Below, one piece after another: positions 26,258 to 42,866 of a stretch of DNA of 64,000 nt. A program made the translations under genes and the position numbers. Source of the stretch: an uncultured Candidatus Binatia bacterium (lineage in GTDB: Bacteria; Desulfobacterota; Binatia; UBA9968; JAJDTQ01); NCBI GenBank assembly GCA_965213675.1, contig OZ243916.1:2272001-2336000 (forward strand), given 5' to 3'. The notes below the pieces were generated by a model. That model had not been told where the DNA came from and made no database searches. It saw nothing but the letters and a program-made list of their open reading frames with translations. Each line of letters begins with the position of its first letter. Within the stretch, counting starts at the first letter, position 1.

Positions 26258-26533
26258 GAGTTGACGAACCCTTGAAACTTAGCGCCGCAATGCCGGGCGC
26301 TCTCTGATGGACCGGCGTACATTTCCATATCCTTGTCATCGCTCGTTGGCAAGTCGTATCCGAACGCCACGGCGCCGGGCCGGGCGCGGAGGATGCCGCG
26401 GAGAACCACCGACATGCCAGCCTGCAGGTTGCTCGATTGCGCACGAGCCATACCTGTCGTGTAATGCAACACCCGTGACACTTGACGAGACCGCGCAAGC
26501 AATGTTAATGGCGAATGCATGGACCGACAGCGC

Positions 26534-28588
26534 ATGAGTACGGATATAGTGCGTTCAATATCGGCAATGGTCATCGGTCTCGTGTTGTGGACAGGCCATG
26601 CCGGTGCGATGGACCTGAGTTCGGGAGAGGTCGAGGCCAGTTTCGATACCACGGTCTCCTACGGCGTCACATTTCGGGTTGCCGAGCGCGACGAGCAATT
26701 GAGCGCCGCGGCCAACGACAACGACGGCAACCTCAACTACGAACGCGGCGTCGCAGGCAACGCCACCAAATTCACCAGCGAACTCGATGTCGGCTACCGC
26801 AACTTTGGAATGTTCGTTCGCGCCAGCGGGCTATACGACATCGAGAACGAGGACGGCGACCGGGAACGCACGCCCCTGTCGGCGGACGCCAAGCGACTGA
26901 TCGGGAAAGACATCAACCTGCTTGATGCCTACGTTTCCGGAACGTTTGATATCGGCGACGCTGGTCTGGACGTGCGTATTGGCAAGCACGTGCTCAACTG
27001 GGGCGAGAGCACGTTCATCCAGAATGGCATCAACGCCGTCAATCCGTTCGACGTGAGCAAGCTCCGGGTTCCGGGAGCGGAATTGCGCGAGGCGTTGCTG
27101 GCGGTGCCGCTGGTTTCGGCATCCGTAGCGCCCACGGCCAACCTCTCCATGGAGAGCTTCTACCAGATCGCTTGGGAGAAGACCGAGATCGACCCGGTAG
27201 GCAGCTACTTCTCGGTCACCGACTATGTCGGTCCCGGCGCGCACAAGGCCGTGATCACCCTCCCCGGACTGGACCTTGGTGACATGGGATTGACCGCCGG
27301 CCACAATCCCTTCGCCATCTTTGCCGGCACTTCCGTGGCCGGCGCCTTCAGCCCCGTCACCCAGCCCGATCCCGACTTTCTCATCGCGCCCCGCAAAGCC
27401 GACCGCGAGCCTCGCGATTCCGGTCAATGGGGATTCGCGTTCCACTACCTCGCGGAGAATCTGAACAACACCGAGTTCGGTTTCTATTTCATGAACTACC
27501 ACAGCCGCCTGCCGGTGGTGAACGCGCACACCGGAACCGCGGCGGACGCAGGGAAAGGCTTGGCCGCGGGCGGGGCCATCAGCGCCGCCGGGCCAACGGC
27601 CGTCGGGGAGATCGTCGGTGGCGCCGTCCAGCAGGCCTTGGCTCAAGCTCGCTGTCCTTCGCCGAGTCACAGCCCGGATTGCGCCGCCCTGGCGAGCGCT
27701 GTGCAAGCGGAAACGACAGCCAGGGCGAGCGCCCTCGCCGGAGCCGCCGGCCAGGCCGCCAGCATCGACGCCTACGCAGACAGTGGCCACTACTTCCTCC
27801 AGTATCCAGAGGACATCCAGCTCTACGGCATCAGCTTCAACACGACGCTCGGCGCCATCGGGTGGGCTTTGCAAGGCGAATATGCCTATCGCCGCGACGC
27901 GCCGCTGCAGTTCGCCGAACGCAAGGTGTTCGCCGATGCCCTTGTACCGTTCACCGGACTGCCGGGATGTATCGGACAGGCGGTACAGAGCGGCGTCCCG
28001 CCGGATCAGGCGGGTCCGCAATGCATCGGCCAGAATGCCATGCGCGGCCTGTACGACGCCGACACCACCGGTTTTGTGCGGCGCGACGTGAGCCAGGCCC
28101 AGGCCACCGCCACCAAGGTCTTCGGACCGTTGCTGGGGGCGGATGGGGGCGCGTTCGTCGCGGAAGTGGCGGTGATGCACGTACACGACATGCCGCCCGG
28201 CAACGGCGTGGCAACCGCCGATTTGACCGCGCGCGACATGCCGCTGGAGAGCACCGCCGGCTCGGTCGGGGCAAATCCGATGGGAGACGACTTGAGCGAC
28301 GCCGACGCCACCTCCTGGGGTTACCGGTTGGCCGCTCGGCTGGACTACAACGGCGCCATCGGAGCGGTGAACCTGTTCCCGTATACACGGTTCGGGCATG
28401 ACGTCGGCGGCAACAGCCCTGCGCCCAGCGGTCCGTTCGTGGAAGGCCGGACCGCCCTCACCTTCGGCCTTGCCGCCGACTATCTCAGCCGCTGGCAGTT
28501 CGATCTCGGCTACACCCTCTTTGCCGGCAAAAGGAACACATTGAGGGACCGCGACTTCCTTGCCGCGACCGTGAAATACTCCTTCTAG
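26534..28588 (+). CDS. DUF1302-family outer-membrane beta-barrel protein
   Basis: Signal peptide; NDNDGNLNY, NWGESTFIQNGIN, NYHSRLP, YPEDI, C-terminal DRDF...KYSF. Confidence 0.88.
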   Translation: MSTDIVRSISAMVIGLVLWTGHAGAMDLSSGEVEASFDTTVSYGVTFRVAERDEQLSAAANDNDGNLNYERGVAGNATKFTSELDVGYRNFGMFVRASGLYDIENEDGDRERTPLSADAKRLIGKDINLLDAYVSGTFDIGDAGLDVRIGKHVLNWGESTFIQNGINAVNPFDVSKLRVPGAELREALLAVPLVSASVAPTANLSMESFYQIAWEKTEIDPVGSYFSVTDYVGPGAHKAVITLPGLDLGDMGLTAGHNPFAIFAGTSVAGAFSPVTQPDPDFLIAPRKADREPRDSGQWGFAFHYLAENLNNTEFGFYFMNYHSRLPVVNAHTGTAADAGKGLAAGGAISAAGPTAVGEIVGGAVQQALAQARCPSPSHSPDCAALASAVQAETTARASALAGAAGQAASIDAYADSGHYFLQYPEDIQLYGISFNTTLGAIGWALQGEYAYRRDAPLQFAERKVFADALVPFTGLPGCIGQAVQSGVPPDQAGPQCIGQNAMRGLYDADTTGFVRRDVSQAQATATKVFGPLLGADGGAFVAEVAVMHVHDMPPGNGVATADLTARDMPLESTAGSVGANPMGDDLSDADATSWGYRLAARLDYNGAIGAVNLFPYTRFGHDVGGNSPAPSGPFVEGRTALTFGLAADYLSRWQFDLGYTLFAGKRNTLRDRDFLAATVKYSF

Positions 28589-28771
28589 CGTTGCGCTTCA
28601 TGAATACGTTCAGAAAGAGGCGCAGGAATCCTTGTCGCCGGCGTGGCGCGACGACTTGCGGGAGCGACCGGCGGCCGCCTGTGGCGGGTACCACGCGAGG
28701 AAAAACAACGCAGCCGACGACGAAATGGACAAGCATTGATGTCCTGTCTGGTTCATTCGAGGCGCCATGCA
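28585..28771. mobile_element. MITE-like element, diverged copy
   Basis: Begins at CTAG in the DUF1302 stop; core GCGAGGAAAAACAACGCAGCCGACGACGAAA shared with the 43041 and 48641 copies. Confidence 0.55.
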
Positions 28772-28772
28772 T

Positions 28773-30134
28773 ATGAAAGCATTTACGATTCGATTGGCCA
28801 CCGCGCTTCTCCTGACCTGTGCGCTCGCCGCTCCCGTTTCCGCTGAACTTGCCGCGGACGACGTCGCGCGCCTCGGCAAGGACCTGACCCCCCTCGGGGG
28901 CGAACGAGCCGGCAATGCCGGCGGCACCATCCCCGAGTGGAGCGGGGGCATCACCAAGCCACCGCAAGGCTACCAGCCCGGTGAGCACCATCGTGATCCG
29001 TACGCGGCCGACAAGCCGCTTTTCGTCATCGACGCGTCCAATGTCGACAAGTATCGGGACAGGCTCACCACCGGGCACCAGCGCATGCTGGAGCTCTATC
29101 CGAGCTTCAAGCTGACGGTCTACCCGACCCGGCGCAGCGCCTCGGTACCGCAGCGCATCTACGACGCCACCCGCAGGATCGCCGCGGTCACCCGGCTGGT
29201 GGACGACGGCAACGGCGTGGACGGCGCTGTCATCGGCATTCCGTTTCCCATTCCCAAGAACGGGCAGGAGGTGATCTGGAACCACCTGCTGCGCTACCGC
29301 GGCGAAGCGGTGTCGTGCACGCTGGGACAGGCGGCGGTGACGCGCGGCGGCAGCTACACCCTCGTCAAGTACGCGGTGGACGTGAGCGTGCGCTACTCGT
29401 TGCCGGGCATGACCGTCGAGAAGCTCGGCAACACCATGATCCTTTTCAAACAGCGGGTGACCGCGCCCGCGCGGCTGGCGGGAGACATCGTGCTGGTGCA
29501 CGAGACCATGAACCAGGCGCAGGAGCCGCGCAGCGCCTGGACCTACAACCCGGGTCAACGGCGTGTGCGGCGCGCGCCCAACATCGCTTACGACAATCCC
29601 GGCACCACCTCGGACGGGCTGCGCACCGCAGACCAGTTCGACATGTTCAACGGCGCCATCGACCGCTATGACTGGAAGCTCGTGGGCAAACGCGAGATGA
29701 TCGTGCCCTACAACGCCTACCGGGCGCACAGCGACAGGCTCTCCTTCAGCGACATCATCCGGCCACTACATGCCAACCCGGAGCATATGCGCTACGAGTT
29801 GCACCGGGTATGGATCGTGGACGCCACGCTCAAGGAAGGCGCAAGCCACATCTACAAGCGCCGGACCTTCTACATCGACGAGGACTCGTGGCAGATTCTG
29901 CTGGTGGACATCTACGACAACCGCGACCAGCTCTGGCGCGTGTCCGAGGGGCACGTCATCAACTTCTACGAGAAGCCGCTGATATGGCCCACGCTGGAGA
30001 TCCATCACGACCTGCAAGCCGGACGCTACCTCGCCCTTGGACTCGACAACGAGTTTCCCATGTGCACCTACGACATCACGTTCAAGGAGAGGGACTTCAA
30101 GCCGTCATCCCTGCGTCGCGCGGGAAGGCGGTGA
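28773..30134 (+). CDS. DUF1329-family periplasmic protein (LolA-like fold family)
   Basis: LTPLGGERAGN, PFPIPKNGQE, YNPGQRRVRRAP, RYELHRVW, DEDSWQI. Confidence 0.9.
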   Translation: MKAFTIRLATALLLTCALAAPVSAELAADDVARLGKDLTPLGGERAGNAGGTIPEWSGGITKPPQGYQPGEHHRDPYAADKPLFVIDASNVDKYRDRLTTGHQRMLELYPSFKLTVYPTRRSASVPQRIYDATRRIAAVTRLVDDGNGVDGAVIGIPFPIPKNGQEVIWNHLLRYRGEAVSCTLGQAAVTRGGSYTLVKYAVDVSVRYSLPGMTVEKLGNTMILFKQRVTAPARLAGDIVLVHETMNQAQEPRSAWTYNPGQRRVRRAPNIAYDNPGTTSDGLRTADQFDMFNGAIDRYDWKLVGKREMIVPYNAYRAHSDRLSFSDIIRPLHANPEHMRYELHRVWIVDATLKEGASHIYKRRTFYIDEDSWQILLVDIYDNRDQLWRVSEGHVINFYEKPLIWPTLEIHHDLQAGRYLALGLDNEFPMCTYDITFKERDFKPSSLRRAGRR

Positions 30135-30209
30135 TATGGTTGCCACCCCTGGGTTACCGCTTCCGCAGGAATGACGATGCGGGGGCCCGTGCCCACGCGT
30201 TCCGGGATC

Positions 30210-31214
30210 ATGAAAGAACTCCGCCAGCGTCTGTCCCTGCTTCGCGATCGCATACATCATCTCCGTTGCAGCCCGGGGGCCCTGCTGCCGGCTCTGTTCC
30301 TGTGCCTGACCGCTCACGCCGCCGGTGACACCAAACCAGCCGTCCAGGCGCCCTTGGCCGAGACCACCCTGCTGCTGGACGCGGCCGCCGCCGGTGACCG
30401 CGTCATCGCGGTGGGCCAGCGCGGCCATATCCTCGTCTCCCGCAACGGCGCGGATTGGCAACAGGCCCAGGTGCCCGTGCGCGCGCTGCTCACCGCGGTG
30501 CACATGCACGACGCGGCCACCGGCTGGGCGGTGGGGCACGATGCGGTGATCCTCCGCACCGATGACGCCGGCGACACCTGGCGGCTGGCGCACCGGGCGC
30601 CGGAGGAAGAGCTGCCCCTGCTGGACGTCTGGTTCCGGGACAAGGAGACGGGATTTGCCGTGGGCGCCTACGGCTATTTCCTGGCCACCCGGGACGGCGG
30701 CGCCACATGGGTCGCCCGCGCCATCAGCGCGGACGACTTTCACCTGAACGAGATCGTGCCCGCGGGTCCGCGGCGGCTCTTCATCGCCGCCGAAGCCGGC
30801 GTCGTATACCGGTCCGACGACGATGGCGCCACATGGCGCGAGACGCCCTCGCCCTACACCGGCTCCTGGTACGGCGCGCTGGCGCTCGACGCGGACCAGC
30901 TCCTCCTCTTCGGGCTCCGCGGCCATCTCTTCCGCTCCGAGGACGCGGGCGAGGGCTGGACGCGGGTGACCACTCACACCAATGCGACCCTCACGGACGC
31001 CATCCGGTTGCAATCCGGCGACGTGGTCTTCACCGGGCTCGAAGGCATCATCCTCACCAGCCGGGACAACGGCCGCAGCGTATCCGCCGCGCGTCTGCGC
31101 TCGCGCCAGGGCATCACGTCGGCGCTGGCGCTGCCCGACGGCGACGTACTGTTGACCGGCGAGTTCGGCGTCCAGCGCCTTTCCCGCCTGGACCCGATCC
31201 CCAGTTCCGAATAG
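30210..31214 (+). CDS. YCF48-like/BNR-repeat beta-propeller protein
   Basis: AVGQRGHIL, WAVGHDAVILRTDD.G.TW, repeated SxDxGxxW; start uncertain. Confidence 0.87.
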   Translation: MKELRQRLSLLRDRIHHLRCSPGALLPALFLCLTAHAAGDTKPAVQAPLAETTLLLDAAAAGDRVIAVGQRGHILVSRNGADWQQAQVPVRALLTAVHMHDAATGWAVGHDAVILRTDDAGDTWRLAHRAPEEELPLLDVWFRDKETGFAVGAYGYFLATRDGGATWVARAISADDFHLNEIVPAGPRRLFIAAEAGVVYRSDDDGATWRETPSPYTGSWYGALALDADQLLLFGLRGHLFRSEDAGEGWTRVTTHTNATLTDAIRLQSGDVVFTGLEGIILTSRDNGRSVSAARLRSRQGITSALALPDGDVLLTGEFGVQRLSRLDPIPSSE

Positions 31215-31220
31215 CCATCC

Positions 31221-33581
31221 ATGACCGAAGCGCGCGACAACTCCCCGGCCAACCCCTTCGCCGCGTTCCTCGAGCGCAGCCTGTTCACCCGGCGCGGCCT
31301 CGTCATCGCCGTCTTCGCGCTCGTGACCCTCGTCATGGGCTGGTTCGCCGCGCAATTGCGCGTGGACGCCGGTTTCTTCAAGCTCGTGCCCCTCAAGCAC
31401 GCCTACATGCAGACCTTCCTCAAGCACCAGCCGCAGTTCGGCAGTGCCGACCAGGTGGTGGTCGCCATCACGGCGGAGCAGGGGGACATGTTCACCCCCG
31501 GTTTCTTCGACGTGCTGAAGCAAGTCACCGACGCGATGTTCTTCCTGCCGGGCATCGACCGCACCCAAGTCTACTCTATCCTCACGCCCAACGTGCGCTA
31601 CATCGAGGTGGTGGAGGACGGGGTGATTGCCGGCAATGTGCTGCCCGCGAGCTTCAAGCCCACGAAGGCTGGCCTGGCCCAGGTGCGCGAGAACGCCATC
31701 AAGGCCGGTGTGGTCGGCAGGCTGGTGGCCAACGACTTCACCGGCGCCATCGTCAGCGGCCGCCTGCAGGAGTTCGACCCCAACAGCGGCAAGCGGCTCG
31801 ACTACCTCGACGTCGCGCGTCAATTGGAAGAAATCCGCGCCCGGGCGCAGGCCAGCGCTCCAGTGCGCGTGCATATCATCGGCTTTGCCAAGCTCGTGGG
31901 TGATATCGCCGCGGGCGCCGCGCGGGTCATCGCGTTTTTCGGCATCACCTTCCTGATCACCGCCCTGTTCGTGTATCTCTACACTCGGTCTGTGCGGCTG
32001 ACCATCCCGCCGCTGGTGTGCTCGCTGGTGGCGGTGGTATGGCAGCTCGGCACGGTCACCGCCCTGGGTTTCGGCATCGATCCCATGTCCATCCTGGTGC
32101 CGTTCCTGGTATTCGCGGTGGGGGTCAGCCACGGCGTGCAGATGGTGAGCGCGGTGCGCGCCGAGGTGGTGGCCGGGGCCGCCGGCCTGGACGCGGCGCG
32201 GGCGAGTTTCCGGCGTCTGCTGCTGCCCGGCGCGGTGGCGCTGGCGTCGGACTCCGTGGGTTTCATCAGCATCTCGTTCATCGAGGTGCAGGTCATCCGG
32301 GAGACGGCCATCACCGCCAGCCTCGGCATCGTGGCCATCATTCTTACCAACCTGGCGCTGCTGCCGGTGCTGCTCTCATATTTCCGCATGAGCGAAGCCG
32401 AGCGGCGGGCCGCGGCCGGGCGCGACAGCGTTCTGCGGCCGCTATGGTCCCGCGTGGCGCGGTTGGCGCACCGGGGTCCCGCGGCCGTGACCGTGGGCCT
32501 TGCCGCGGCGCTGGTGACCGTGGGGGCCTTATACGCGGTCCAGGTCCAGGTGGGCGACAGCCACCAGGGCGTGCCCGAACTGCGCGCCGAATCCGTGTAC
32601 AACCGTGACATCGCCACCATCACCGAACGCTTCAAGATCGGCGTGGACGTGCTCACGGTGTTCGCGGAGACGGTGCCGGACGGGTGCATCGACTACGACG
32701 TGCTTGCTACCCTGGACGCGTTCACCTGGCACGTGCGCAACGTGGAGGGAGTCCAATCCGTGATGAGCCTGGCCAGCGTCGCGCGCAACATCAACGCCGG
32801 CTGGAACGAGGGCAACCTCAAGTGGCGCACGCTGCCGCGAAACCGCCACAGCCTGGTGCAGTCGGTTGCGCCGGTACCCACCAGCAGCGGCCTCATCAAC
32901 AACGATTGCAGCGTGCTCCCGGTGCGCATCTACACCGTCGATCACAAGGCGGAGACCATCCAGCGCGTGGTCGACGCCACCCGGGAGTTCCAGCGCCCGA
33001 ACACCGTGGAACGCATTCGCTTTCATCTGGCGGGGGGCAACGTCGGCGTGATGGCCGCCACCAACGAAGAAGTGGATGCTTCCCAGTTCCCGATCCTGGG
33101 CTACGTCTTCGCCGGGATCATCCTGCTGTGCCTGCTCTCGTTCCGCTCCGTGGCCGCCACGGTGTGCATCATCGTGCCGCTGGCCGCGGTATCCATCCTG
33201 GCCTACGGGCTCATGGCGATCCTGGAGATCGGGCTCAAGATCTCGACCCTGCCGGTGGTCGCCCTGGGGGTGGGAATCGGCGTGGACTACGCCATCTACA
33301 TCTATGGCCGGCTGCGCGCCCATCTGGAAGAAGGGCTGGACTTCGCCGACGCCTACGAACGCACCCTCAACATCACCGGCGCCGGCGTGGTGCTCACCGG
33401 ACTCACCCTGGCCGCGGGCGTGGCCACCTGGATCGTCGCCCCGCTCAAGTTCCAGGCCGACATGGGCACGGTGCTGATGTTCATGTTCCTGGTCAACATG
33501 ATCGCCGCCGTGGTGCTGCTGCCGGCCCTCGGCGCGTGGCTCGTGCGCCCGAGGCCGGCGGAACGCGTAAAAGGGACGTAG
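31221..33581 (+). CDS. MMPL/RND-family transporter
   Basis: Two repeated halves; GVSHGVQ, GVGIGVDY, LKFQADMG; last gene of the DUF1302 operon. Confidence 0.92.
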   Translation: MTEARDNSPANPFAAFLERSLFTRRGLVIAVFALVTLVMGWFAAQLRVDAGFFKLVPLKHAYMQTFLKHQPQFGSADQVVVAITAEQGDMFTPGFFDVLKQVTDAMFFLPGIDRTQVYSILTPNVRYIEVVEDGVIAGNVLPASFKPTKAGLAQVRENAIKAGVVGRLVANDFTGAIVSGRLQEFDPNSGKRLDYLDVARQLEEIRARAQASAPVRVHIIGFAKLVGDIAAGAARVIAFFGITFLITALFVYLYTRSVRLTIPPLVCSLVAVVWQLGTVTALGFGIDPMSILVPFLVFAVGVSHGVQMVSAVRAEVVAGAAGLDAARASFRRLLLPGAVALASDSVGFISISFIEVQVIRETAITASLGIVAIILTNLALLPVLLSYFRMSEAERRAAAGRDSVLRPLWSRVARLAHRGPAAVTVGLAAALVTVGALYAVQVQVGDSHQGVPELRAESVYNRDIATITERFKIGVDVLTVFAETVPDGCIDYDVLATLDAFTWHVRNVEGVQSVMSLASVARNINAGWNEGNLKWRTLPRNRHSLVQSVAPVPTSSGLINNDCSVLPVRIYTVDHKAETIQRVVDATREFQRPNTVERIRFHLAGGNVGVMAATNEEVDASQFPILGYVFAGIILLCLLSFRSVAATVCIIVPLAAVSILAYGLMAILEIGLKISTLPVVALGVGIGVDYAIYIYGRLRAHLEEGLDFADAYERTLNITGAGVVLTGLTLAAGVATWIVAPLKFQADMGTVLMFMFLVNMIAAVVLLPALGAWLVRPRPAERVKGT

Positions 33582-33772
33582 GGGCGCGTCTGAAACCCTC
33601 CCATCATTCAACCGCGGCCATTCAAGCCTACGCCGCACCGGCGAAAACCCAACCTCTCATAAAAGAGTGGCGGCCATGGGCATGAAGCCATACAATAGAA
33701 GCCGGATCTCATGGAGGTAGAAGGAAAAGATTTCCGGAAGCCGCAGGAGTCGGCATCGAAAGCGCACAGAAC

Positions 33773-36091
33773 ATGACTTCCAAGTCGAAGCCCGGTTTTT
33801 TCGATCTGATAGTGGATCGATACTTCTGGACGATAGCCGTCACTTTCCTGTTGACCGCCGTGCTCGCCACGGGAGTACAGCACCTCATTACCGTCAATGT
33901 AGGCATCCGAAATCACTTCGATGACAATGACCCGCATTTGATCAACCTCGACGATTTCGAAACGACCTACGCAGTGTCGGACAGCGTCCTCGTCATTGTC
34001 GCCCCGCCGAACGACACCGTTTTCACGCGCAAAGCACTCGTTGCGATTGAGCAACTGACGGACGTGTTGTGGCAAACGCCTTATTCTGTCCGTGTCGATT
34101 CGATAACCAATTACCTGCACACCGAGGGAATCGAGGACACCCTGATTGTCGAGCAACTGGTCGACGACGCGGCTTCGCTGGGCGACGTCAACCTCGCCCG
34201 CATTCGAGACATCGCCCTCACCGCACAGGAAACGGCCGGCCGTTTCGTCTCTCGCGACGGTCGTGTGGCCGGCCTGATCGTGAGCCTGGCCATCCCCGCT
34301 GAACAACGCAAACAGCGCAAAATCGAAGTGGTCGACGGTCTCTACGGTCTGGTCAACAAACAGCGCGCGGCCAACCCCGACATCGAATATCACATCTATG
34401 GTGAACTGTTGTTGAATCGGGCGGTTCGCGACGCGCTGACAGACGATATGTCCTTTTTGGCGCCAATCGCGCTTGCGATGATGGTTCTGGTCGCGATGCT
34501 GTTGTTGCGTTCGGTTTGGAGCGTTTGCGGGATTTTTGCGATGATAATTGCGGTGATGGCATCGAGTTTCGGCCTAACCGGCTGGTTCGGTTTGAAATTC
34601 TATGCGGAAAGCGGCGCCGCGGTATTCGTTCTGATGGCGATTGCCATCGCACACTCCGTCCACCTGATCGAAGGAGTGACCGTTGGAATGCTTCGTGGAA
34701 TGGAACGTAAAGCCGCCGTTGTTCACTCCCTGACAATCAATGCCCATCCGATCTTCCTTACTTCGCTCACCACCATGATCGGTTTTCTGAGCCTGAATTT
34801 TTCGGAAATGCCGCCGTTTCGAGTGATGGGTAATATCGTTGCGTTCGGCGCCATGTGCGCCTTCGTCTACGCGGTCACGCTTTTGCCCGCATTGTTGGCG
34901 ATGATGCCCATCCGGGCACCCGCCGAAACGAGACACGGAACGACACCTTTCAAGCGTTTGGGAGATTTCGTCGTTTCCAAAAGCATTTTCTTGCTATGGA
35001 CTTTCGTCATCCTCGTTCTGGTGAGCGCATATGGCATCTCGCGAATCAGCCTGAATGACAACAACAACGCCAAGCTCCTTAACGAAAGCTACGACTTGCG
35101 CCGATCGGGTGATTTCATCAACGAGCACTTTGCCGGGCTGGATTCCTTTGAGTATTCACTGAATTCCGGGCGCGCGGGGGGAATCACCGACATTGAGTAC
35201 CTGCGTCGGGTGGATTCGTTCGCCAACTGGCTTCGCGAACAGCCTGAAGTTTCTCACGTCACCTCGATTGCCGATATCATGAAGCGGATTAATCAAAATC
35301 TTCATAATGACGCAAAAGGCACCTATGCCCTCCCGGCAAACTCCGACCTTGCGGCGCAATACCTGCTTTTATACCAGTTCTCCCTACCGGTCGGCCGCGA
35401 CATAGACAATCTCATCAACTTTGAGCGGTCGGCGACCCGGATGACCGTCGTGATCGGGGGAATGTCGGTCAAAAAGCAAATCGAGCTGGACAATCGCGCT
35501 TCTGCCTGGCTGGGACACAATGCTCCGCAAATGCGGACCGGAGCGACCGGCGTCGCCATTGTGGGCGCTTACTCGGTGATGAGAAACATCGTGAACATGT
35601 TACTCGGCACCTTCATCGCGATCTCGACCGTGTCGCTGCTGTTGATCCTTGCATTCAAAAGCCTTCGCTTGGGGCTTCTAAGCCTGATACCCAATTTCGT
35701 GCCGGCAATCATATCCTTGGGGGCATGGGGTTACGCTGTGGGAACCGTGAATATTGCGGCGTCAATCGTTACCGCGATAGCGTTTGCCATCGTTGTGGAC
35801 GATACCATCCATCTCCTGTCGAAATACCTGACTTCACGCGCAGAGGGCAAATCACCTTCCGAAGCCATCCCGCCGACTTTCGAGCTCGTGGGACAACCGC
35901 TGCTGAGCACCACGTTGATTTTTGCGGTGGCATTTTTCGTCTTTGGCGCATCGGGGCTAGTGACCAATCAGACGCTCGGTTTGCTGGTCGGAATGACGGT
36001 CATCATTGCGCTCGTTGCGGACCTCTTTTTGTTACCGCCGCTTCTGCTGGCCCTCGACAGGACGAAACACCGGCAAACGCTCGACGACTAG
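33773..36091 (+). CDS. Second MMPL/RND-family transporter (AT-richer codon usage)
   Basis: Duplicated TM architecture; LTSLTTMIGFLSL, SLIPNFVP, AIVVDDTIH. Confidence 0.9.
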   Translation: MTSKSKPGFFDLIVDRYFWTIAVTFLLTAVLATGVQHLITVNVGIRNHFDDNDPHLINLDDFETTYAVSDSVLVIVAPPNDTVFTRKALVAIEQLTDVLWQTPYSVRVDSITNYLHTEGIEDTLIVEQLVDDAASLGDVNLARIRDIALTAQETAGRFVSRDGRVAGLIVSLAIPAEQRKQRKIEVVDGLYGLVNKQRAANPDIEYHIYGELLLNRAVRDALTDDMSFLAPIALAMMVLVAMLLLRSVWSVCGIFAMIIAVMASSFGLTGWFGLKFYAESGAAVFVLMAIAIAHSVHLIEGVTVGMLRGMERKAAVVHSLTINAHPIFLTSLTTMIGFLSLNFSEMPPFRVMGNIVAFGAMCAFVYAVTLLPALLAMMPIRAPAETRHGTTPFKRLGDFVVSKSIFLLWTFVILVLVSAYGISRISLNDNNNAKLLNESYDLRRSGDFINEHFAGLDSFEYSLNSGRAGGITDIEYLRRVDSFANWLREQPEVSHVTSIADIMKRINQNLHNDAKGTYALPANSDLAAQYLLLYQFSLPVGRDIDNLINFERSATRMTVVIGGMSVKKQIELDNRASAWLGHNAPQMRTGATGVAIVGAYSVMRNIVNMLLGTFIAISTVSLLLILAFKSLRLGLLSLIPNFVPAIISLGAWGYAVGTVNIAASIVTAIAFAIVVDDTIHLLSKYLTSRAEGKSPSEAIPPTFELVGQPLLSTTLIFAVAFFVFGASGLVTNQTLGLLVGMTVIIALVADLFLLPPLLLALDRTKHRQTLDD

Positions 36092-36259
36092 CTTTCGGGA
36101 CGTCTCGTGATGGCCGAAACCATGAGGTCCTGGACGCGCCGATGACCCCGGTTCCGCCGGCGTCTCGCGAGCAAACTTCCGCCCGTCCGCGTCCACGTTC
36201 GCGCCATGCCGTCATTCTCGACAGCGTCCGTATCGCCGGTCACGAGCGCAGGAGCACCT

Positions 36260-38290
36260 TCAGGCCGAAATGTCGCGCAACTGGCTTGCGATGCGCAGCC
36301 GAAGTTTCTTCGTAACCGACAATGCCGGGAATGGGTTGATTTTCAGTTTATAGTCTTTGGGCGGCGGCGCAAAGTCGAAATGGTGCGCTATAACCAACAC
36401 GGTAACCGTCGCCTGCAAATGCATCCATGCCCATCCCGCGCACGAGTGGGTATCCAAGCCGTTCGGAGCGTATCCAGGACCTTGATGCTCATTGCGCGGC
36501 GGCAGGTAACGGTCTATATCGAAGTCGTAGGGGTCTGCGAAGCAATCACTCATGTAGTGGGCCGCGGTTTGCACAATGTACAACCGTTCCCGGAGCGGCA
36601 GTGAATAATTTTCCACCACGCAAGAATTTGCGACATCGCGAAGATGTGTGCTGATAATCGGATACATTCGCAAGCATTCCATGAGAAAGCGCCTGGTAAC
36701 GTCATATTTGTCCGGCGTAAACGCTTCTTTATTCGGATCGCCGCCATCGAACAGCGCGTTTGCCTCTTCACGAATTCTCGCCGCAATATCCGGGTGCCTG
36801 GCCAACTCATAAAGTGCGAAACCCAACATGTCCCCTAGATAAATACTTTGAAACACGGGCGTTACCGCCATCATGAACATCAGGTTTTGCTCCGGGATAA
36901 ACTGCGGATCGCTGGTGTGCAAAGAAATCAGCTCGTCCGCCAGCTCCCGGGCAGCGCCTGCACGGTGAATGGGAATGTGGTTCTGTTCGATGCGCCGCAG
37001 GAGTTTCTCGTAAAGCTGGAAGCGATACTTCATGCCGGGAGTGCGCGTCAGGAATTTCGGGAGAAAATCCGCAACGTAGCAAAGGATTGCTTTTTCATTC
37101 CATTTGACCAGGTCTTCAAATACATCTTGCGAATTCGTACTAATAAGAACCTGAGACATTTGAAAATTGGTCATCGACCGGGTATCGCGCTGTACTTCCA
37201 GTGTCGAGCCGGCCTGCCACTTTTGAGTTATCATGAATTGGCGGCTCAGTCGGAACATGTCATCCAGCCGCTCGTGGAAACTGGCCTTCGAGTAAATTTT
37301 CCCCATCAGCTTGCGCAATCGAAAATGATCAGCTCCGTCCGTCGACGGCAGTAAATTGTTTGCGCCGCAAACCGTCTCCATCTTGCGAAAAAAATTGCCG
37401 GAAGTCAAAAACCTTCGGGAATTTCGACGCATCCAATGATTGATGTCAGGTCCTGCCAAAAATGTTCGCGGTCTTTGAAACGGCGGACAGATTTGAAAGA
37501 CGGGACCATATCGGGCGGCCAGATTCCCGAACAGGGCTGGCAGGTTGCCGTCCCACAAATGCCGATTTGCGAACAAGCTCCTTAGGGGAATCTTCGGAAT
37601 TGGTTTTGTGAGGGGTGAGTGTTGCAATACAGGCGTAATGGCGACCTGCTTGACAGCAGTGGAGATGACCCGGTTGATCAGTTCCGTTTTACAAACCTGG
37701 TCAATTCGCTTTTTCTCGTCCTCGCCCAGCTCGAAAATGAATTTGATGATATCGCACGCGCTCAAAAGACCGATTATCAGGGAATCCCTCGGGTCTGGAA
37801 TGATATCCGTGAAAATTACCTTCGCGATTCGCGATTTGATGTACTTTCCAACGGTCTCGCTTTGAGGATATCGTTCCAATTCCGCATGCCAGGCGCAGTG
37901 GTTCGTTGTATAAAACTCACCATCATGGCGCGTCAGAATTTCGGAGTTGATCAACTGCTTCAATGTAGCATCGATGATGTCTTCCGAATGAACTGCAAGC
38001 CGCTCAATCCAGTATCGCGGTTCTTCCAGATTGGGATGAGATGCGAACTCTTCCAGACATAAATCCAGTGCCGGGTCGCCTGTTTTGGTCGAGTCCAGGA
38101 GAAAGAGCGATTCTTCGTCGGTATCAATGCGTGATTTCAGGGAGAGATCGGCCAGAACTGCGCCGATGGTGGCGCAGTTCAACGTCCAGCCCTCCACTTG
38201 GTGGAAATAACCGTTCTGCTCGTTGAGAATCGTCAGGATGAATTCTTGCGGGATATTCAACGATTGCTTCGTTATCATGTTACACGCCAT
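36260..38290 (-). CDS. GPP34(GOLPH3)-domain plus cytochrome P450 fusion
   Basis: N-terminal LNIPQEFILTIL..GAVLADLSL..RI..TGDPALD (GPP34-like); P450 motifs ECLRMYP, FDIDRY, GLDTHSCAG; start 38290 or 38278. Confidence 0.85.
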   Translation of the reverse strand: MACNMITKQSLNIPQEFILTILNEQNGYFHQVEGWTLNCATIGAVLADLSLKSRIDTDEESLFLLDSTKTGDPALDLCLEEFASHPNLEEPRYWIERLAVHSEDIIDATLKQLINSEILTRHDGEFYTTNHCAWHAELERYPQSETVGKYIKSRIAKVIFTDIIPDPRDSLIIGLLSACDIIKFIFELGEDEKKRIDQVCKTELINRVISTAVKQVAITPVLQHSPLTKPIPKIPLRSLFANRHLWDGNLPALFGNLAARYGPVFQICPPFQRPRTFLAGPDINHWMRRNSRRFLTSGNFFRKMETVCGANNLLPSTDGADHFRLRKLMGKIYSKASFHERLDDMFRLSRQFMITQKWQAGSTLEVQRDTRSMTNFQMSQVLISTNSQDVFEDLVKWNEKAILCYVADFLPKFLTRTPGMKYRFQLYEKLLRRIEQNHIPIHRAGAARELADELISLHTSDPQFIPEQNLMFMMAVTPVFQSIYLGDMLGFALYELARHPDIAARIREEANALFDGGDPNKEAFTPDKYDVTRRFLMECLRMYPIISTHLRDVANSCVVENYSLPLRERLYIVQTAAHYMSDCFADPYDFDIDRYLPPRNEHQGPGYAPNGLDTHSCAGWAWMHLQATVTVLVIAHHFDFAPPPKDYKLKINPFPALSVTKKLRLRIASQLRDISA

Positions 38291-38358
38291 TCCTCGTGAT
38301 TTGATTCTTTCTCGTGATGCCGATGCCTGCGGCTTCCGGTCCCCTTTTTTCCATCCCT

Positions 38359-41300
38359 CTACGAGATCTTCTTTGCCGTTCCGGTTCCGCCGTCCGGCGT
38401 CATGTCCACAGCCGCCACTCTTCCAGCCATGACGCGTTGACTTCTCGCCGGTAATATCATGTTCATTCGTTGGTTCCGGCGACGCTGCTCGTAGAGGGCA
38501 AGCGCGTGCAGGGGGAAATACTGGCGGTAGAGCACGTAATCCAGGAGGGCCGTTCGAAAAAAAACGCCGGCCATGTCCTGCTTGGGCCAAGTCCCGTCTG
38601 CTTCCTGCGTATCAAGCAGGAAGCCGGCACCCCGGGAAATCGCGGCCCAGTCTGTTGTGCCCGCCTCGAGGAGCGCTATCAGCGCCCACGCGGTCTGTAT
38701 GACCTGGCTTTCCTGATGCGGGACGTAGCGACCGGTCAGGCAGCCGCTGTGGTGTTCGCCCCATCCCCCGTCTGGCTGCTGGCGCTCCAGCAGCCAGCGG
38801 CAAGACGCGCGCAGCGCCGGATCGCTTGGACCGGCCCGGTCCGAAACAAGGCCCCTGATGCCGAAAAGGGTGCCGTAGATGTACTGTACCCCCCATACGC
38901 CGCGCCAACTGCCGTCAGCCATCTGGTGCCGTCGCAACCACAAGACGCCCCGGGCGATGGAGTCGGCAACCACCGACCTGTCGCCAATTTCGGGAAATCG
39001 ATCCCGGCAGACAGCCAGCGCCGCGATACAAGACGCGGTACACTCGACAAAAGAACGCTCGGTCATCGATTCGCCGAACATCTCTGCAGGATTCAAACGC
39101 TCCAGATCAATTGCCGAGCGCCTGGCCTCATAACTGCCGAAGCCCCCGTCGGGGTTCTGGCTTCGCAACATAAAGCCAATCGCTTCGCTGAGGACGGACG
39201 GGTCCGTGTCGTCTCCGTGGGCGGCGACGAGTCCGAGCACCGCCTCCGCCGTGCAGTCACTCACCGGCCAGCCATGCCACCCGCCGGCGAAGCACCAGCC
39301 GCCTTTGGGGTCAGCGCGGTAGGCTTCACGAAACCGCTCAAAGCTGGTCTTGATCTGTTCGCCGAGCAGAAAATCGGCGCCGCGCCGGAGCGCATCCCGA
39401 ACACGGTCCGTCTCAGGCATGGTAGCCAGAGCCTGCAGCGCGAACCCGGTATCCCACGAAGCGCTTCTTGCTCCGCTGACCCGCAAGCCGTCGTCTTCGT
39501 CTTCCCATATCCAGGAACCCATTTTCGATAGCGCCCGTCGGCAATCGGTATCGTCCGGATCGTGCAGCCACAGCGCCAGAATGTTGAGAATGCCGCTGAC
39601 CGGAGAGATGCTCGTATGGCCGGTGGTCTGCAGTTCCCATCTGATCTGCCCGAGAATTGTATCCATGCACCGTGTGCGCAGGTGTTTGCTGTGGAACCGC
39701 TCGACCAGCCGTGCAAATCCATATCCGAGCCTGAGCCAGACGGACGGCCTTGCAAAAAGATCGGCGTCCCGAAGCCGGTTCCTGGCGGCGAGAAAGTCGG
39801 CCCTGGCAAAACCTTGCGGATAAAGCTCTTCCCGCAACGCGGCGATAACTGGTGTGACGGGCGCCTGGAACCGGCGGGCATAAATCGACGCCATCGCCAT
39901 ATAGATGAGCCGTGTATGGCAGTACCAGTTGGAAGGATGCAGCGGTATCTTCCGCGGCAGGCTCCACAATTCCGGCAGAACAGCGTTCACGCCGTTCCAA
40001 TCATAAAGATTAAGGAGCGCCAGCCATAATTTTCCCCAGCTCGGAATGCCGAGAATCCCCTCGGCCTGAATGAACCGCCGGGCCGGCGCGATCAGGGGGT
40101 CATCCGGCAATACACCGAGCAGCCGCGCCGCGACATAAACGAGGGCGGTGACGAACAGATGGGGCGACGAATGCTCGTGCAGGCCCCATGAACCGTCCTG
40201 GAGACGAGTCCTCTCAAACGAGCGCAGCACCCGGCGCCGCTTTCCCGGATCGAGCGGCTGGCCGATGATGTGGTGGAGCAGTACGTATTGCGCCGTGAGC
40301 ATGGGACACCAGACCATCTCGCCTTCCCAGTCGCCGTCCTCTCTCTGCAGTTGCACGAGGCATTGGGCGGCGCTGTCCAGCGCCGGGCCGGCATCGGGCG
40401 AATCGACCGCTCCCGCGCGGGCGGGCCGCTCCGATTCGGTTTTCGAAGGGATGGAATAGGGGAATGCCCGTCGTAGGTGCTCTCGCGTATTCGCGCTTTC
40501 CTCCCTTCCTTCCCTGGTCGCCGCCCTCAACTGGCGGATGCCGAGCAGCAACCACCAAAGGCGAGCAGCCAACGCGCGAAAGTTCACCAACATCCGACGC
40601 CATGAAAGCCTGCGGATGGAGAAGGTTATCTCCCGGCTCATTGCCCGCGCGACAGTTTCGCAAAAGGAGAAAACCGTCATTGACATGGACAAGTCTTCGC
40701 AGGCAAGTATCCGCATGGTCCGGTCCCGATACCCCGAATTCGCTCGCCAGCCTTGGTAAACGGCCTTTCTGAGCATAGCCGATTCGGTGCGGTAATCGCC
40801 CAACACCTCATAAAGCCCCATGGCAAGGAACTCGGGAACACGGGTCGCCTGGAACCGCTCTGCGGTGAATTGCTGGAAGTCCTCGCTTTCGGAGAGCGCC
40901 AGCGCATCGCCGAAGCCGAGAGTCATGCCGACTGCCGTCATGGGATGATAGTGTCCGGCGGCATCGCCGATAAGCACCCGGCGCGGGTTCCCGTACGTGA
41001 CACGCGGTCTCAATTGGTTGGGGGCGGCATGGAATCGCCTGACGTCCAGCGCTTCGACGAAGGCCGGCCCGAGATATCCCGGAAGCAGCTTGCCATAGGA
41101 TTCAGACAAGAAACTTATCCAGTCCTTGGAATGCCAGCAGTCCAATGGGACATCCACGTTGACCCGGACGGAGCCGTTCGCAAGTCCGTAAATGAAAATT
41201 GGACCCGGCCCGCCCAGAACCACATGTCCGTATCCTTCAAACGGCAGGTCGGCGTCGTGTAACGTCACCCCGAGCATCCGCGAACAGAGCATCGGGTCCA

Positions 41301-41799
41301 TGGAATACCCCAAGGATCTGCGCACGATCGAAGCGCGGCCGTCGGCGCCGATAATTCGGTCGACATTTATGGCGCAGTCCGAGCGGTCTTTCGAGAAGGT
41401 GATCCGTTCGTCTTCAACGACATTGACCCGCGCGTGGGAAATGAAATCGACATTGGCCTCGTTCTCTATGACCTCGCGGAGGCTTGAAACGAGCAGCGCG
41501 TGGTCGCATACCAGACCCCGTGAACCGTCTGGATAAGGAAGCAGGATCGGGTCGGAGTCGTCGTCGGGCAGCACCACGAAGCCGACGCCCGACTTGCTGC
41601 CGGAAAGCGTGTCGACATCAATCCCGATGTCACGCAACAAATTCACTGCCGGCGGATGCAACCATTCGCCTGCAAGGCGTTTAGACGCTTTCGGATTCGC
41701 TTCGAGCAGGGCCACCTTAACGCCCTTGCGCGCAAGGACAATTGCGCACACGCTTCCCACCGGTCCCGCGCCGACAATGGCGGTATCATACTTCGGCAC
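38359..41799 (-). CDS. Squalene epoxidase-oxidosqualene cyclase fusion
   Basis: GTG 41799 after GAGGAGG. N-half: GAGPVG, RLAGEWLHP, ADG, GDAAGHYHPMTAVGMT. C-half: QxxDGxW repeats, WYCHTR, GWPVSDCTAE, GVWG.QYIYGT, GVFF..ALLDY..YRQYFP. Confidence 0.92.
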   Translation of the reverse strand: MPKYDTAIVGAGPVGSVCAIVLARKGVKVALLEANPKASKRLAGEWLHPPAVNLLRDIGIDVDTLSGSKSGVGFVVLPDDDSDPILLPYPDGSRGLVCDHALLVSSLREVIENEANVDFISHARVNVVEDERITFSKDRSDCAINVDRIIGADGRASIVRRSLGYSMDPMLCSRMLGVTLHDADLPFEGYGHVVLGGPGPIFIYGLANGSVRVNVDVPLDCWHSKDWISFLSESYGKLLPGYLGPAFVEALDVRRFHAAPNQLRPRVTYGNPRRVLIGDAAGHYHPMTAVGMTLGFGDALALSESEDFQQFTAERFQATRVPEFLAMGLYEVLGDYRTESAMLRKAVYQGWRANSGYRDRTMRILACEDLSMSMTVFSFCETVARAMSREITFSIRRLSWRRMLVNFRALAARLWWLLLGIRQLRAATREGREESANTREHLRRAFPYSIPSKTESERPARAGAVDSPDAGPALDSAAQCLVQLQREDGDWEGEMVWCPMLTAQYVLLHHIIGQPLDPGKRRRVLRSFERTRLQDGSWGLHEHSSPHLFVTALVYVAARLLGVLPDDPLIAPARRFIQAEGILGIPSWGKLWLALLNLYDWNGVNAVLPELWSLPRKIPLHPSNWYCHTRLIYMAMASIYARRFQAPVTPVIAALREELYPQGFARADFLAARNRLRDADLFARPSVWLRLGYGFARLVERFHSKHLRTRCMDTILGQIRWELQTTGHTSISPVSGILNILALWLHDPDDTDCRRALSKMGSWIWEDEDDGLRVSGARSASWDTGFALQALATMPETDRVRDALRRGADFLLGEQIKTSFERFREAYRADPKGGWCFAGGWHGWPVSDCTAEAVLGLVAAHGDDTDPSVLSEAIGFMLRSQNPDGGFGSYEARRSAIDLERLNPAEMFGESMTERSFVECTASCIAALAVCRDRFPEIGDRSVVADSIARGVLWLRRHQMADGSWRGVWGVQYIYGTLFGIRGLVSDRAGPSDPALRASCRWLLERQQPDGGWGEHHSGCLTGRYVPHQESQVIQTAWALIALLEAGTTDWAAISRGAGFLLDTQEADGTWPKQDMAGVFFRTALLDYVLYRQYFPLHALALYEQRRRNQRMNMILPARSQRVMAGRVAAVDMTPDGGTGTAKKIS

Positions 41800-42103
41800 C
41801 GAGTCAGCCCTCCTCAAAGGGCGCTGGGTATAGCGCGGCGGCGGTTGTGGAGGGCAGGTCTTCCAGGTTCGCCACTGGGGTAGGCATGACGAGCGCCTCC
41901 TGCACCACGTTCGTGGCGAGGCCGGTGAAGGTCAGAGTCGGGTCACTTCCCGCACCGTGTTTGCGAGCGAATCATCTTGTCTTTCAAGGGACGAGTTGTA
42001 TTTCTTTGTTTTCAGCCAATTGCGGGCGGCAGGACAAACCTTACACGGCCAAGTTTCAAACCCGCCAGTGTCCAATCGCGCCGAGACGTGTCTCCAACCC
42101 CCC

Positions 42104-42742
42104 CTACGCCGCGAACGACGCCTGTGTTTCCTTCTCGAAGGCCAGTAGCTTCTGGACGCTGGGGCGGGTCTGCATGCGCGCGAAATGCGCGCGCACGTTG
42201 GGATAGGGCTCCAGGTCGATGTCGAACTGGGTGCTGCGGCGTACGCACCAGAAGAAATGCGCGTCCGGCGCGGTGAAGTGATCGAAGAAGTACTCGCGCC
42301 CGTCCAGCATGGACTCGGCGATTCCGTTGGTCTCGGCCAGGAACTCGGCGGCGATGCGGGACACGCTCTCCACGCTGTCCGCCGCGTCGCACACCTTGGC
42401 CGGCGAGTTGATGCGGCTCAGATAAGGGTGGATGCCCGATGCGCACCACGACATGATCGAGATCGCCCTGACCTCATCCCAAGGATCCGACGGCAGCAGC
42501 CTGGCCTCCGGGAAGCGCCGCGCGATCCACACCTGAATGGCCACGTTCTCCGTCAGGGTTTTCCCGTCCACCATCAGAAGCGGCACCTTGTGCTTGGGAT
42601 TGAGCTTCATGTACTCCTCGGTGCGGTTCTGCCCCGCCCGGAAGTTCAACGCCTTGACTTCGAAGTCCGCCCCCGCCTCGGTCAACGTGATGTAGGGCGC
42701 CATCGCGCAGGTGATGGGCGCGTAATACAACTGGATGCTCAT
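42104..42742 (-). CDS. Glutathione S-transferase family protein
   Basis: LYYAP, LNPKHKVP, LTENVAI, FTAPD, RPSVQ; GGAGGT RBS. Confidence 0.92.
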   Translation of the reverse strand: MSIQLYYAPITCAMAPYITLTEAGADFEVKALNFRAGQNRTEEYMKLNPKHKVPLLMVDGKTLTENVAIQVWIARRFPEARLLPSDPWDEVRAISIMSWCASGIHPYLSRINSPAKVCDAADSVESVSRIAAEFLAETNGIAESMLDGREYFFDHFTAPDAHFFWCVRRSTQFDIDLEPYPNVRAHFARMQTRPSVQKLLAFEKETQASFAA

Positions 42743-42779: not shown

Positions 42780-42866
42780 TGGTGCCGGAGGGGGGACTCG
42801 AACCCCCACAGGGTTGCCCCTACTGGATTTTGAGTCCAGCGCGTCTACCAATTCCACCACTCCGGC
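42780..42866 (-). tRNA. tRNA-Leu(CAA)
   Basis: GCCGGAG/CTCCGGC acceptor stem, CTGGA-CT-CAA-AA-TCCAG anticodon arm, long variable arm, GGTTCGAGTCC, CCA. Confidence 0.97.

Follow-up and report, generated by a model that had tools for sequence, protein, structure and literature searches.

In Methylococcus capsulatus and Gemmata, squalene monooxygenase (SQMO, here squalene epoxidase, SE) and oxidosqualene cyclase (OSC) are encoded by two separate genes. The stretch of DNA analysed here, 64,000 nucleotides of contig OZ243916.1 from an uncultured Candidatus Binatia bacterium (hereafter the window), carries the same two families, predicted to catalyse the same two steps, in one polypeptide rather than two: a single open reading frame encodes an SE-OSC fusion. 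The human counterparts, lanosterol synthase and SQLE, are separate proteins of the endoplasmic reticulum.

Fusions of this kind are already in print as annotations. MsbE (MT026193.1), from the msb locus of a gammaproteobacterial symbiont of the sponge Melophlus sarasinorum, was annotated as such a fusion (PMC7074536, Mar Drugs 2020), and "fused SMO/OSC homologs" are named in the Methods of PMC10070321. MsbE, which we liken to the window fusion by its published description and not by sequence identity, has the same domain order (SE, then OSC) and the same key valine; its cluster also encodes an NAD(P) oxidoreductase, a Rieske oxygenase, a sterol reductase and a C-14 demethylase (msbA-D), whereas counterparts of msbA-D were not found in the window or in its genome. 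Clusters of ERG24, CYP51 and LSS, in that order and termed CSGs, were described in 115 of 537 Ircinia metagenome-assembled genomes (MAGs) from 10 phyla, with horizontal gene transfer inferred (PMC9531527, Microbiome 2022). The "LSS/ERG7" alignment of that study has 3765 nucleotide positions, which fits a protein of about 1150 amino acids (aa), that is, the fused form, although a fusion to an epoxidase is not stated in its accessible text. The same gene order is found in 66 of the 80 related loci considered below (the best 80 of 281 loci in species-representative genomes); by contrast, the window locus lacks ERG24 and CYP51 and has instead a gene for a GPP34-cytochrome P450 fusion and a gene for an RND transporter. 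Another natural fusion in a bacterial sterol pathway, the CYP51-ferredoxin of M. capsulatus (PMC7947880), joins a P450 to its redox partner and not two consecutive pathway enzymes. The fusion is not mentioned in the accessible text of PMC8237579 or PMC12324236.

The original prediction, made from the letters of this stretch, had regarded the fusion as novel because the characterised bacterial and eukaryotic sterol producers are not known to join the two enzymes in one gene, unless fused homologues proved to have been characterised already. The claim of novelty has to be given up, as full-length fused homologues are abundant and annotated in print. Their characterisation so far extends to annotation: our literature search, which did not cover the supplements of PMC9531527, PMC8237579 and PMC10070321, found no biochemical assay of a natural SE-OSC fusion. 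The window gene is thus a further member of the known MsbE-type family. By examining its two halves, its relatives and its genomic surroundings, we hypothesize, with a probability of about 0.85, that it encodes a bifunctional SE-OSC of this family, converting HpnCDE-derived squalene to a lanosterol-type protosterol, and that it lies in a reduced, horizontally acquired cassette. Its domain identity, intact catalytic residues, open frame, distribution and context are direct observations.

The fusion gene and its two halves

The reading frame is uninterrupted (Table 1) and gives 1152 aa from the first TTG. An in-frame GTG at 41799 is an alternative start and gives 1146 aa, in agreement with the single frame of about 1146 aa at 38359-41799 that had been predicted. 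In databases, the nearest homologue (P0002, 94% identical, 1146 aa) has the GTG as its start; most other homologues have 13-14 residues N-terminal of GAGP, a better fit to TTG. Judged from these comparisons the start codon is ambiguous between TTG and GTG, and our reading is unaffected by the choice. Every motif named in the original prediction was found in the translation: GxGxxG as GAGPVG at residue 16 (41755-41772), RLAGEWLHP from residue 47, GDAAGHYHPMTAVGMT from residue 284, and DCTAE at residue 854 (39244-39258).

The C-terminal half is a cyclase of the oxidosqualene type. Pfam SQHop_cyclase_N (PF13249, residues 481-774, 4.4e-52) and SQHop_cyclase_C (PF13243, residues 785-1110, 3.4e-55) match above cut-off, and a loose QW-repeat pattern has four matches in this half. 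Its sequence is far closer to human lanosterol synthase (1w6k, 4e-135) than to hopene cyclase (1e-52), and so is its fold: Foldseek aligns it to 1w6k with a TM-score of 0.84, an rmsd (root-mean-square deviation) of 2.3 Å and an E value of 3e-44, against 4e-30 and an rmsd of 3.6 for hopene cyclase. In the residue alignment human D455, C456, H232, Y503 and C533 correspond to D854, C855, H634, Y896 and C926. Across 50 fused sequences A857 does not vary, D854, C855, T856 and E858 show at least 90% conservation, and H634, Y896 and C926 fall in one or the other of these two classes. The motif had been correctly read as DCTAE and not DXDD, D854 being the residue aligned with human D455. Among NCBIfam profiles, TIGR03463 (2,3-oxidosqualene cyclase) scores 733.8 bits compared with 267 for hopene cyclase, which fails, and the broader TIGR01787 (squalene/oxidosqualene cyclase) is passed with 507.4 against a cut-off of 322.7.

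The N-terminal half is of the SQLE type. It carries the Rossmann GxGxxG (G16, G18, G21), GEWLHP at 50-55 and the GD pair G284 and D285; the three Rossmann glycines and the GD pair are invariant across the 50 fused sequences. Pfam FAD_binding_3 matches residues 10-309 (E 7e-21, above the curated cut-off) and SE (PF08491) residues 156-357 (78.6 bits against a cut-off of 20.1, E 5.3e-22), so that in the profile check proposed for both halves SE, SQHop_cyclase_N and SQHop_cyclase_C all exceed their Pfam cut-offs, far beyond chance. Among solved structures human SQLE (6c6n) is its best relative, at 8e-28, with 7e-9 for the flavin monooxygenase that comes next. Foldseek aligns the half to 6c6r over 435-438 columns, out of about 450 residues in the SQLE construct, the C-terminal helical domain included (TM-score 0.80, E 8e-20), with generic or PHBH-type hydroxylases at about 1e-15 and TM-scores of 0.72-0.77. 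Since the half is nearest to SQLE in both sequence and fold, the clustering with other flavin monooxygenases that the original prediction had allowed for is not seen. In the predicted structure it ends in helices (378-403, 406-436 and 442-451) that resemble the membrane-binding helices of human SQLE.

The AlphaFold2 model of the 1152-aa protein has a mean pLDDT of 84.4 and a pTM of 0.77; both halves are confident, and the last 32 residues are disordered. The Pro/Ala-rich linker predicted at about 40400-40460 was rightly placed, inside the linker of Table 1, whereas its composition is only mildly biased (5 P and 6 A in 35 residues). Apart from the Rossmann core and a single buried helix of the barrel, no 19-residue segment is hydrophobic enough for a transmembrane helix, as would suit a protein that, like members of both parent families, sits at the membrane surface.

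Distribution and phylogeny

A word-indexed protein search gave 1133 matches among 8000 scored candidates. All 120 clusters among the matches listed are fusions of 1044-1184 aa that carry PF08491, PF13249 and PF13243, at 66-94% identity, and the best 80 of the 281 loci are all fused, at 62-94% identity. Two enzymes in one polypeptide, as predicted, is therefore right; an unknown or exceptional arrangement it is not, given 120 of 120 listed clusters and 281 loci. By label these best 80 loci belong to Gammaproteobacteria (28), Alphaproteobacteria (27), Nitrospiria (7), Chloroflexota (5), Binatia (3), Terriglobia (2), and Thermodesulfobacteriota, Acidimicrobiia and Rhodothermia (1 each), with no phylum label for 5. 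Explicit sponge-related names (Spongia_Bin9, lac_sponge, Porisulfidus, Poriferihabitaceae) occur in 6 of the 80 locus titles, several other bin prefixes presumably denote sponge MAG sets, and runs labelled "sponge metagenome" contain related contigs. The window fusion belongs to a large MsbE-type clade whose members come mainly from MAGs of bacteria that live with sponges and represent many phyla.

An exhaustive search of representatives added divergent fused clusters at 35-49% identity. The 157 sequences classified comprise 16 full SE-OSC fusions, 77 with OSC only, 42 with SE only and 22 partial; among representatives, unfused OSCs and unfused SEs each reach at most 52% identity. Trees of the two domains were built as quick searches, with SH-aLRT values and no bootstraps. 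In the OSC tree a single clade (SH-aLRT 99) unites all 16 fused rows and 6 unfused ones; its counterpart in the SE tree (SH-aLRT 99) contains 15 of the 16 and 12 further rows not classed as full fusions, three of which are truncated fusions. The window's own group is monophyletic with support 100 in both trees, and all 8 of its rows in the OSC tree are fused. The clustering of fused rows in both trees suggests that the fusion is old, with some fission, re-fusion or truncated gene calls since.

On an 81-row FastTree tree, phylum labels need 7 changes, the minimum possible, and class labels 9, against a minimum of 7. The minimal number of phylum-label changes fits a history in which the gene crossed between phyla a few times long ago and was then passed down within lineages, and we dropped rampant inter-phylum transfer on this count.

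The representative matches include further natural fusions between early sterol enzymes. All five of the long "SE-only" proteins tested (P0199, P0210, P0216, P0244 and P0263; 1082-1200 aa) have an N-terminal squalene epoxidase and a C-terminal squalene/phytoene synthase, with about 400 residues between them that have no domain assignment, and P0191 is a squalene synthase (SQS) fused to an OSC.

The proposed pathway and competing readings

The chemical steps, the product, its export and any kinetic benefit of the fusion are what we infer from these data, as follows. One polypeptide would catalyse the two oxygen-dependent steps that come first in making sterols. An HpnC/HpnD/HpnE-like route elsewhere on the chromosome would supply squalene, which the N-terminal FAD-dependent epoxidase (residues 8-451) would turn into 2,3-oxidosqualene. 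Across a flexible linker of about 25 residues, the class II cyclase (residues 477-1121) would take over: D854 of DCTAE would protonate the epoxide, leading to cyclisation to a lanosterol-type protosterol. Because CYP51, ERG24 and SdmA/B-like proteins were not found, the pathway probably stops at the protosterol or at a P450-oxidised derivative, which the RND protein may move. The simplest benefits of the fusion would be that the two membrane-surface enzymes are made in a 1:1 ratio, kept in the same place and inherited together.

The rest of the genome, a single MAG (97.7% complete, 8% contamination), agrees with such a route. It has one cyclase and one SE, both within the fusion frame, and no hopene cyclase. 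A candidate squalene supply lies at C1:3.153-3.157 Mb, where two adjacent SQS_PSY genes and an amine-oxidase gene (HpnCDE-like) are found with ispH; in the absence of a hopene cyclase from the genome, squalene from this row has no predicted consumer except the fusion. When the proteins of a related locus with the complete gene set (L031, described below) were used as queries against this genome, ERG24 and the SdmB-like protein had no match, Rieske matches reached at most 33% identity over partial lengths, and P450 matches 23-27%. CYP51 is the best solved relative of neither of the two other P450 genes of the genome. The row of HpnC-, HpnD- and HpnE-like genes and IspH (within C1:3148000-3164000) is adjoined by a LolA-like lipoprotein gene and an RND fragment, and paralogues of the RND transporter occur at C1:3159569-3161047 and C1:3518444-3520191.

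Several observations count against this reading. All of the evidence is computational. The cyclase half misses the strict TIGR03463 cut-off of 851, and two of its three specificity positions are non-canonical (below). The PF08491 match is not specific by itself, because the E. coli and Caulobacter control genomes also score above its cut-off. No electron donor was assigned to the epoxidase half, and the absence of CYP51, ERG24 and SdmAB is that of one MAG, with the completeness and contamination given above. The epoxidase active site also departs from the human one. Human SQLE depends on a hydrogen-bonded pair formed by Y195 and Q168, and Y195F costs more than 90% of its activity (PMC6327030); the aligned positions in the fusion are F80 and H54. 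The same residues are common to nearly all related bacterial SE homologues, fused or unfused (F in 62 and H in 63 of 64), and the change is therefore a trait of the lineage and not a defect of this gene. As judged by this alignment, the bacterial SE active site differs from the eukaryotic one, and, with Y195F crippling the human enzyme, it must work differently. A third position takes part in the difference: the bacterial lineage, in fused and unfused proteins alike, has W52, H54 and F80 where human SQLE has F166, Q168 and Y195.

The identity of the product is the weakest step. Of the triad that governs product specificity (human T381, C or Q449, and V453), the fusion has A783, H848 and V852, the first two being non-canonical, so that lanosterol is only the most likely product. 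A different one, whether cycloartenol, parkeol, an arborane-type triterpenol or a specialised glycoside precursor as proposed for the msb cluster, is in our view unlikely. A bacterial OSC is said, in reference lists, to produce arborane triterpenols. The triad as a whole favours such an alternative; so does its histidine, which at position 449 is the cycloartenol-type residue (PMC4919349), and the msb cluster has been linked to sarasinoside biosynthesis (PMC7074536). Against this, position 453 alone tracked the product in the bacterial cyclases tested, valine correlating completely with lanosterol and isoleucine with cycloartenol (PMC4919349), MsbE was called a lanosterol cyclase from the same valine (PMC7074536), and across the fused family V852 reaches at least 90% conservation. 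A lanosterol-type protosterol is thus the likely product on the strength of the valine at the V453 position. The original prediction had also envisaged that a fusion would allow channelling of 2,3-oxidosqualene. In the form considered here, the fusion would have evolved for, and would achieve, transfer of 2,3-oxidosqualene between domains docked in a fixed geometry, without equilibration through the membrane. The retention of the fusion over a large clade, with the frame intact in 79 of the 80 loci, would suit this idea, as would the three long SE helices that in the model directly precede a short linker and would keep the membrane-facing sides close; the pTM of 0.77 was judged higher than expected for randomly placed domains, a value that comes with no inter-domain error estimate. 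We nevertheless regard channelling as doubtful, as the linker shows little conservation and is disordered in part of the model, both families work at the membrane surface with a lipid substrate already confined to the bilayer, and genes that are not full fusions are nested in the fused clade of both trees, which implies that the two activities work apart in close relatives. With 281 loci in species-representative genomes, an effect of the fusion on flux or on oxidosqualene leakage is worth asking about all the same.

That an error of assembly or sequencing in the linker merged two neighbouring genes is, by comparison, scarcely credible. The window does come from a MAG with estimated contamination, and the Logan contigs over the region are short and have joints; these joints are not read as a split gene, because the likeness threshold was 90% and the metagenomes hold many related copies. 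At that threshold, contigs from all four runs cover each of 30 bins across 39900-40900 with no insertions or deletions listed, one contig of 2530 nucleotides (nt) bridges 40301-40900 without a gap, and a contig of 177 nt matches 40309-40485 exactly; these contigs are the outcome of the read-support check proposed for the linker. The window itself is situated on a contig of 3.97 Mb. In 79 of the 80 related loci one unbroken alignment covers 1090 or more query residues, and the same frame stays open in 79, in different assemblies and phyla; a stop falls within the alignment in 8, in 7 of which the alignment overruns the natural stop in the non-conserved tail. All 120 protein clusters among the matches listed are full length. 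The open frames in relatives and the Logan contigs effectively refute an artefact. The sole internal stop among the 80 loci, at about residue 641 of locus L060, may reflect a pseudogene or a sequencing error.

The low-GC island and its surroundings

The fusion gene lies at one end of an island of low GC content that holds exactly three genes (Table 1). The GPP34-P450 gene has the lowest GC (49-50%), followed by the RND gene (about 54-58%) and the fusion (58-64%). Two Pfam families are recognised in the RND protein, MMPL (1.2e-30) and Sterol-sensing (27.5 bits, cut-off 22.3). Upstream of the fusion there are only a GST gene and a tRNA-Leu gene. No integrase gene was seen near this edge of the island, a search for att-like direct repeats from the tRNA-Leu to the far island edge gave only short two-copy matches at chance level, and a promoter and terminator scan at the island gave counts at the level of shuffled sequence.

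Table 1. Features of the fusion gene and its neighbourhood (coordinates in the window)
Feature	Coordinates	Strand	Basis or remark
Whole SE-OSC fusion frame	38359..41817	minus	1152 aa from TTG, stop codon included
Squalene epoxidase part, residues 8-451	40465..41796	minus	Pfam, best solved relative, Foldseek, invariant columns
Inter-domain linker, residues 452-476	40390..40464	minus	Poorly conserved; pLDDT <50 at 460-470
Oxidosqualene cyclase part, residues 477-1121	38455..40389	minus	Pfam, 1w6k, Foldseek, TIGR01787
C-terminal tail, residues 1122-1152	38362..38454	minus	Non-conserved, pLDDT <50
Low-GC island with exactly three genes	33600..41800		GC 49-64% against 65-68% in the flanks
GPP34 (GOLPH3-like)-cytochrome P450 fusion gene, 672 aa	36260..38278	minus	Pfam; 80 nt past the SE-OSC stop
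RND/MMPL (HAE3-type) transporter with sterol-sensing domain, 772 aa	33773..36091	plus, convergent	Pfam, NCBIfam HAE3
GST gene	42104-42742	minus	Between island and tRNA-Leu
tRNA-Leu (CAA)	42780..42866	minus	About 1 kb outside the island edge

The 80 related loci commonly have a fuller gene set: CYP51 is present in 68, ERG24 in 67 (both in 66), a Rieske gene in 65 and an NAD(P) oxidoreductase in 61. In L031, for example, four genes precede the fusion, for an NAD(P) oxidoreductase of the SdmB-like type, a Rieske oxygenase, ERG24 and CYP51, and a gene for an RND protein bearing a sterol-sensing domain comes further on after it; this is the published layout from which the window departs. In 20 of the 80 loci the fusion has a GPP34-P450 homologue no more than 8 kb away, and in 13 an RND transporter gene lies beside it. 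The layout of the window, with GPP34-P450 and without CYP51 and ERG24, recurs in eight loci (L005, L006, L009, L010, L015, L023, L039 and L042), all among the closer relatives of the window locus, six of which also have the RND gene.

The GPP34-P450 architecture is widespread. Both domains are present in 118 of the 120 homologous clusters among the matches listed, at 49-100% identity, and in 100% of the members of two Atlas clusters (164 and 55 members); where a source names these proteins, it is only as "cytochrome P450". The P450 part is distant from solved P450s, with CYP51 among the best (about 1e-13) alongside CYP102-type enzymes. As a strict marker of the sterol pathway the gene was rejected, as 16 of 24 other genomes of the same genus have a match and the SE-OSC fusion is found in only 2; many of these matches are full-length paralogues of 48-50% identity, compared with 75-99% for the copies adjacent to an SE-OSC. 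Our literature search found no paper that combines GPP34, cytochrome P450, bacteria and sterol, and none on the trio of SE-OSC, GPP34-P450 and RND genes.

The two other genomes of the genus that carry the fusion, each from a different species, are G012 (98% identity to the window fusion) and G001 (65%), and both have the same three-gene layout as the window. In view of the GC island, this patchy occurrence and the shared layout, the fusion gene was probably acquired horizontally within the three-gene cassette; patchiness within the genus and the GC island together indicate transfer that was at least local and recent. The SE-OSC of G001 is 77% identical to a Nitrospirales copy and 65% to that of the window, while its GPP34-P450 and RND genes are about 75% identical to those of the window, and these identities suggest a mosaic origin of the cassette. 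In the G001 copy (G001:C3:68500-88000) one in-frame TGA was reported within a read-through of 1821 aa.

More tentatively, SE-OSC, GPP34-P450 and RND may form a distinct, mobile, minimal sterol cassette that works without CYP51, ERG24 and C-4 demethylases, in which an undemethylated protosterol would be oxidised by GPP34-P450, a P450 joined to a domain that binds membrane lipids, and delivered by the RND protein to the envelope or to a sponge host. Such a reduced cassette suggests that some symbionts stop at the protosterol or modify it by an undescribed route. Sterol genes in the bacterial symbionts of sponges matter for the interpretation of sponge sterane biomarkers, a concern stated in PMC10070321, and a single-gene module from squalene to lanosterol would be a convenient part for metabolic engineering. 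The fusion itself, which is not news to the field of bacterial sterols, is of modest interest, and the reduced cassette of somewhat more.

Adjoining the island, on the plus strand and at native GC, lies a set of DUF1302, DUF1329 and MMPL-RND genes (26519-33581), which looks like a resident export system for lipids or other hydrophobic compounds next to the acquired one.

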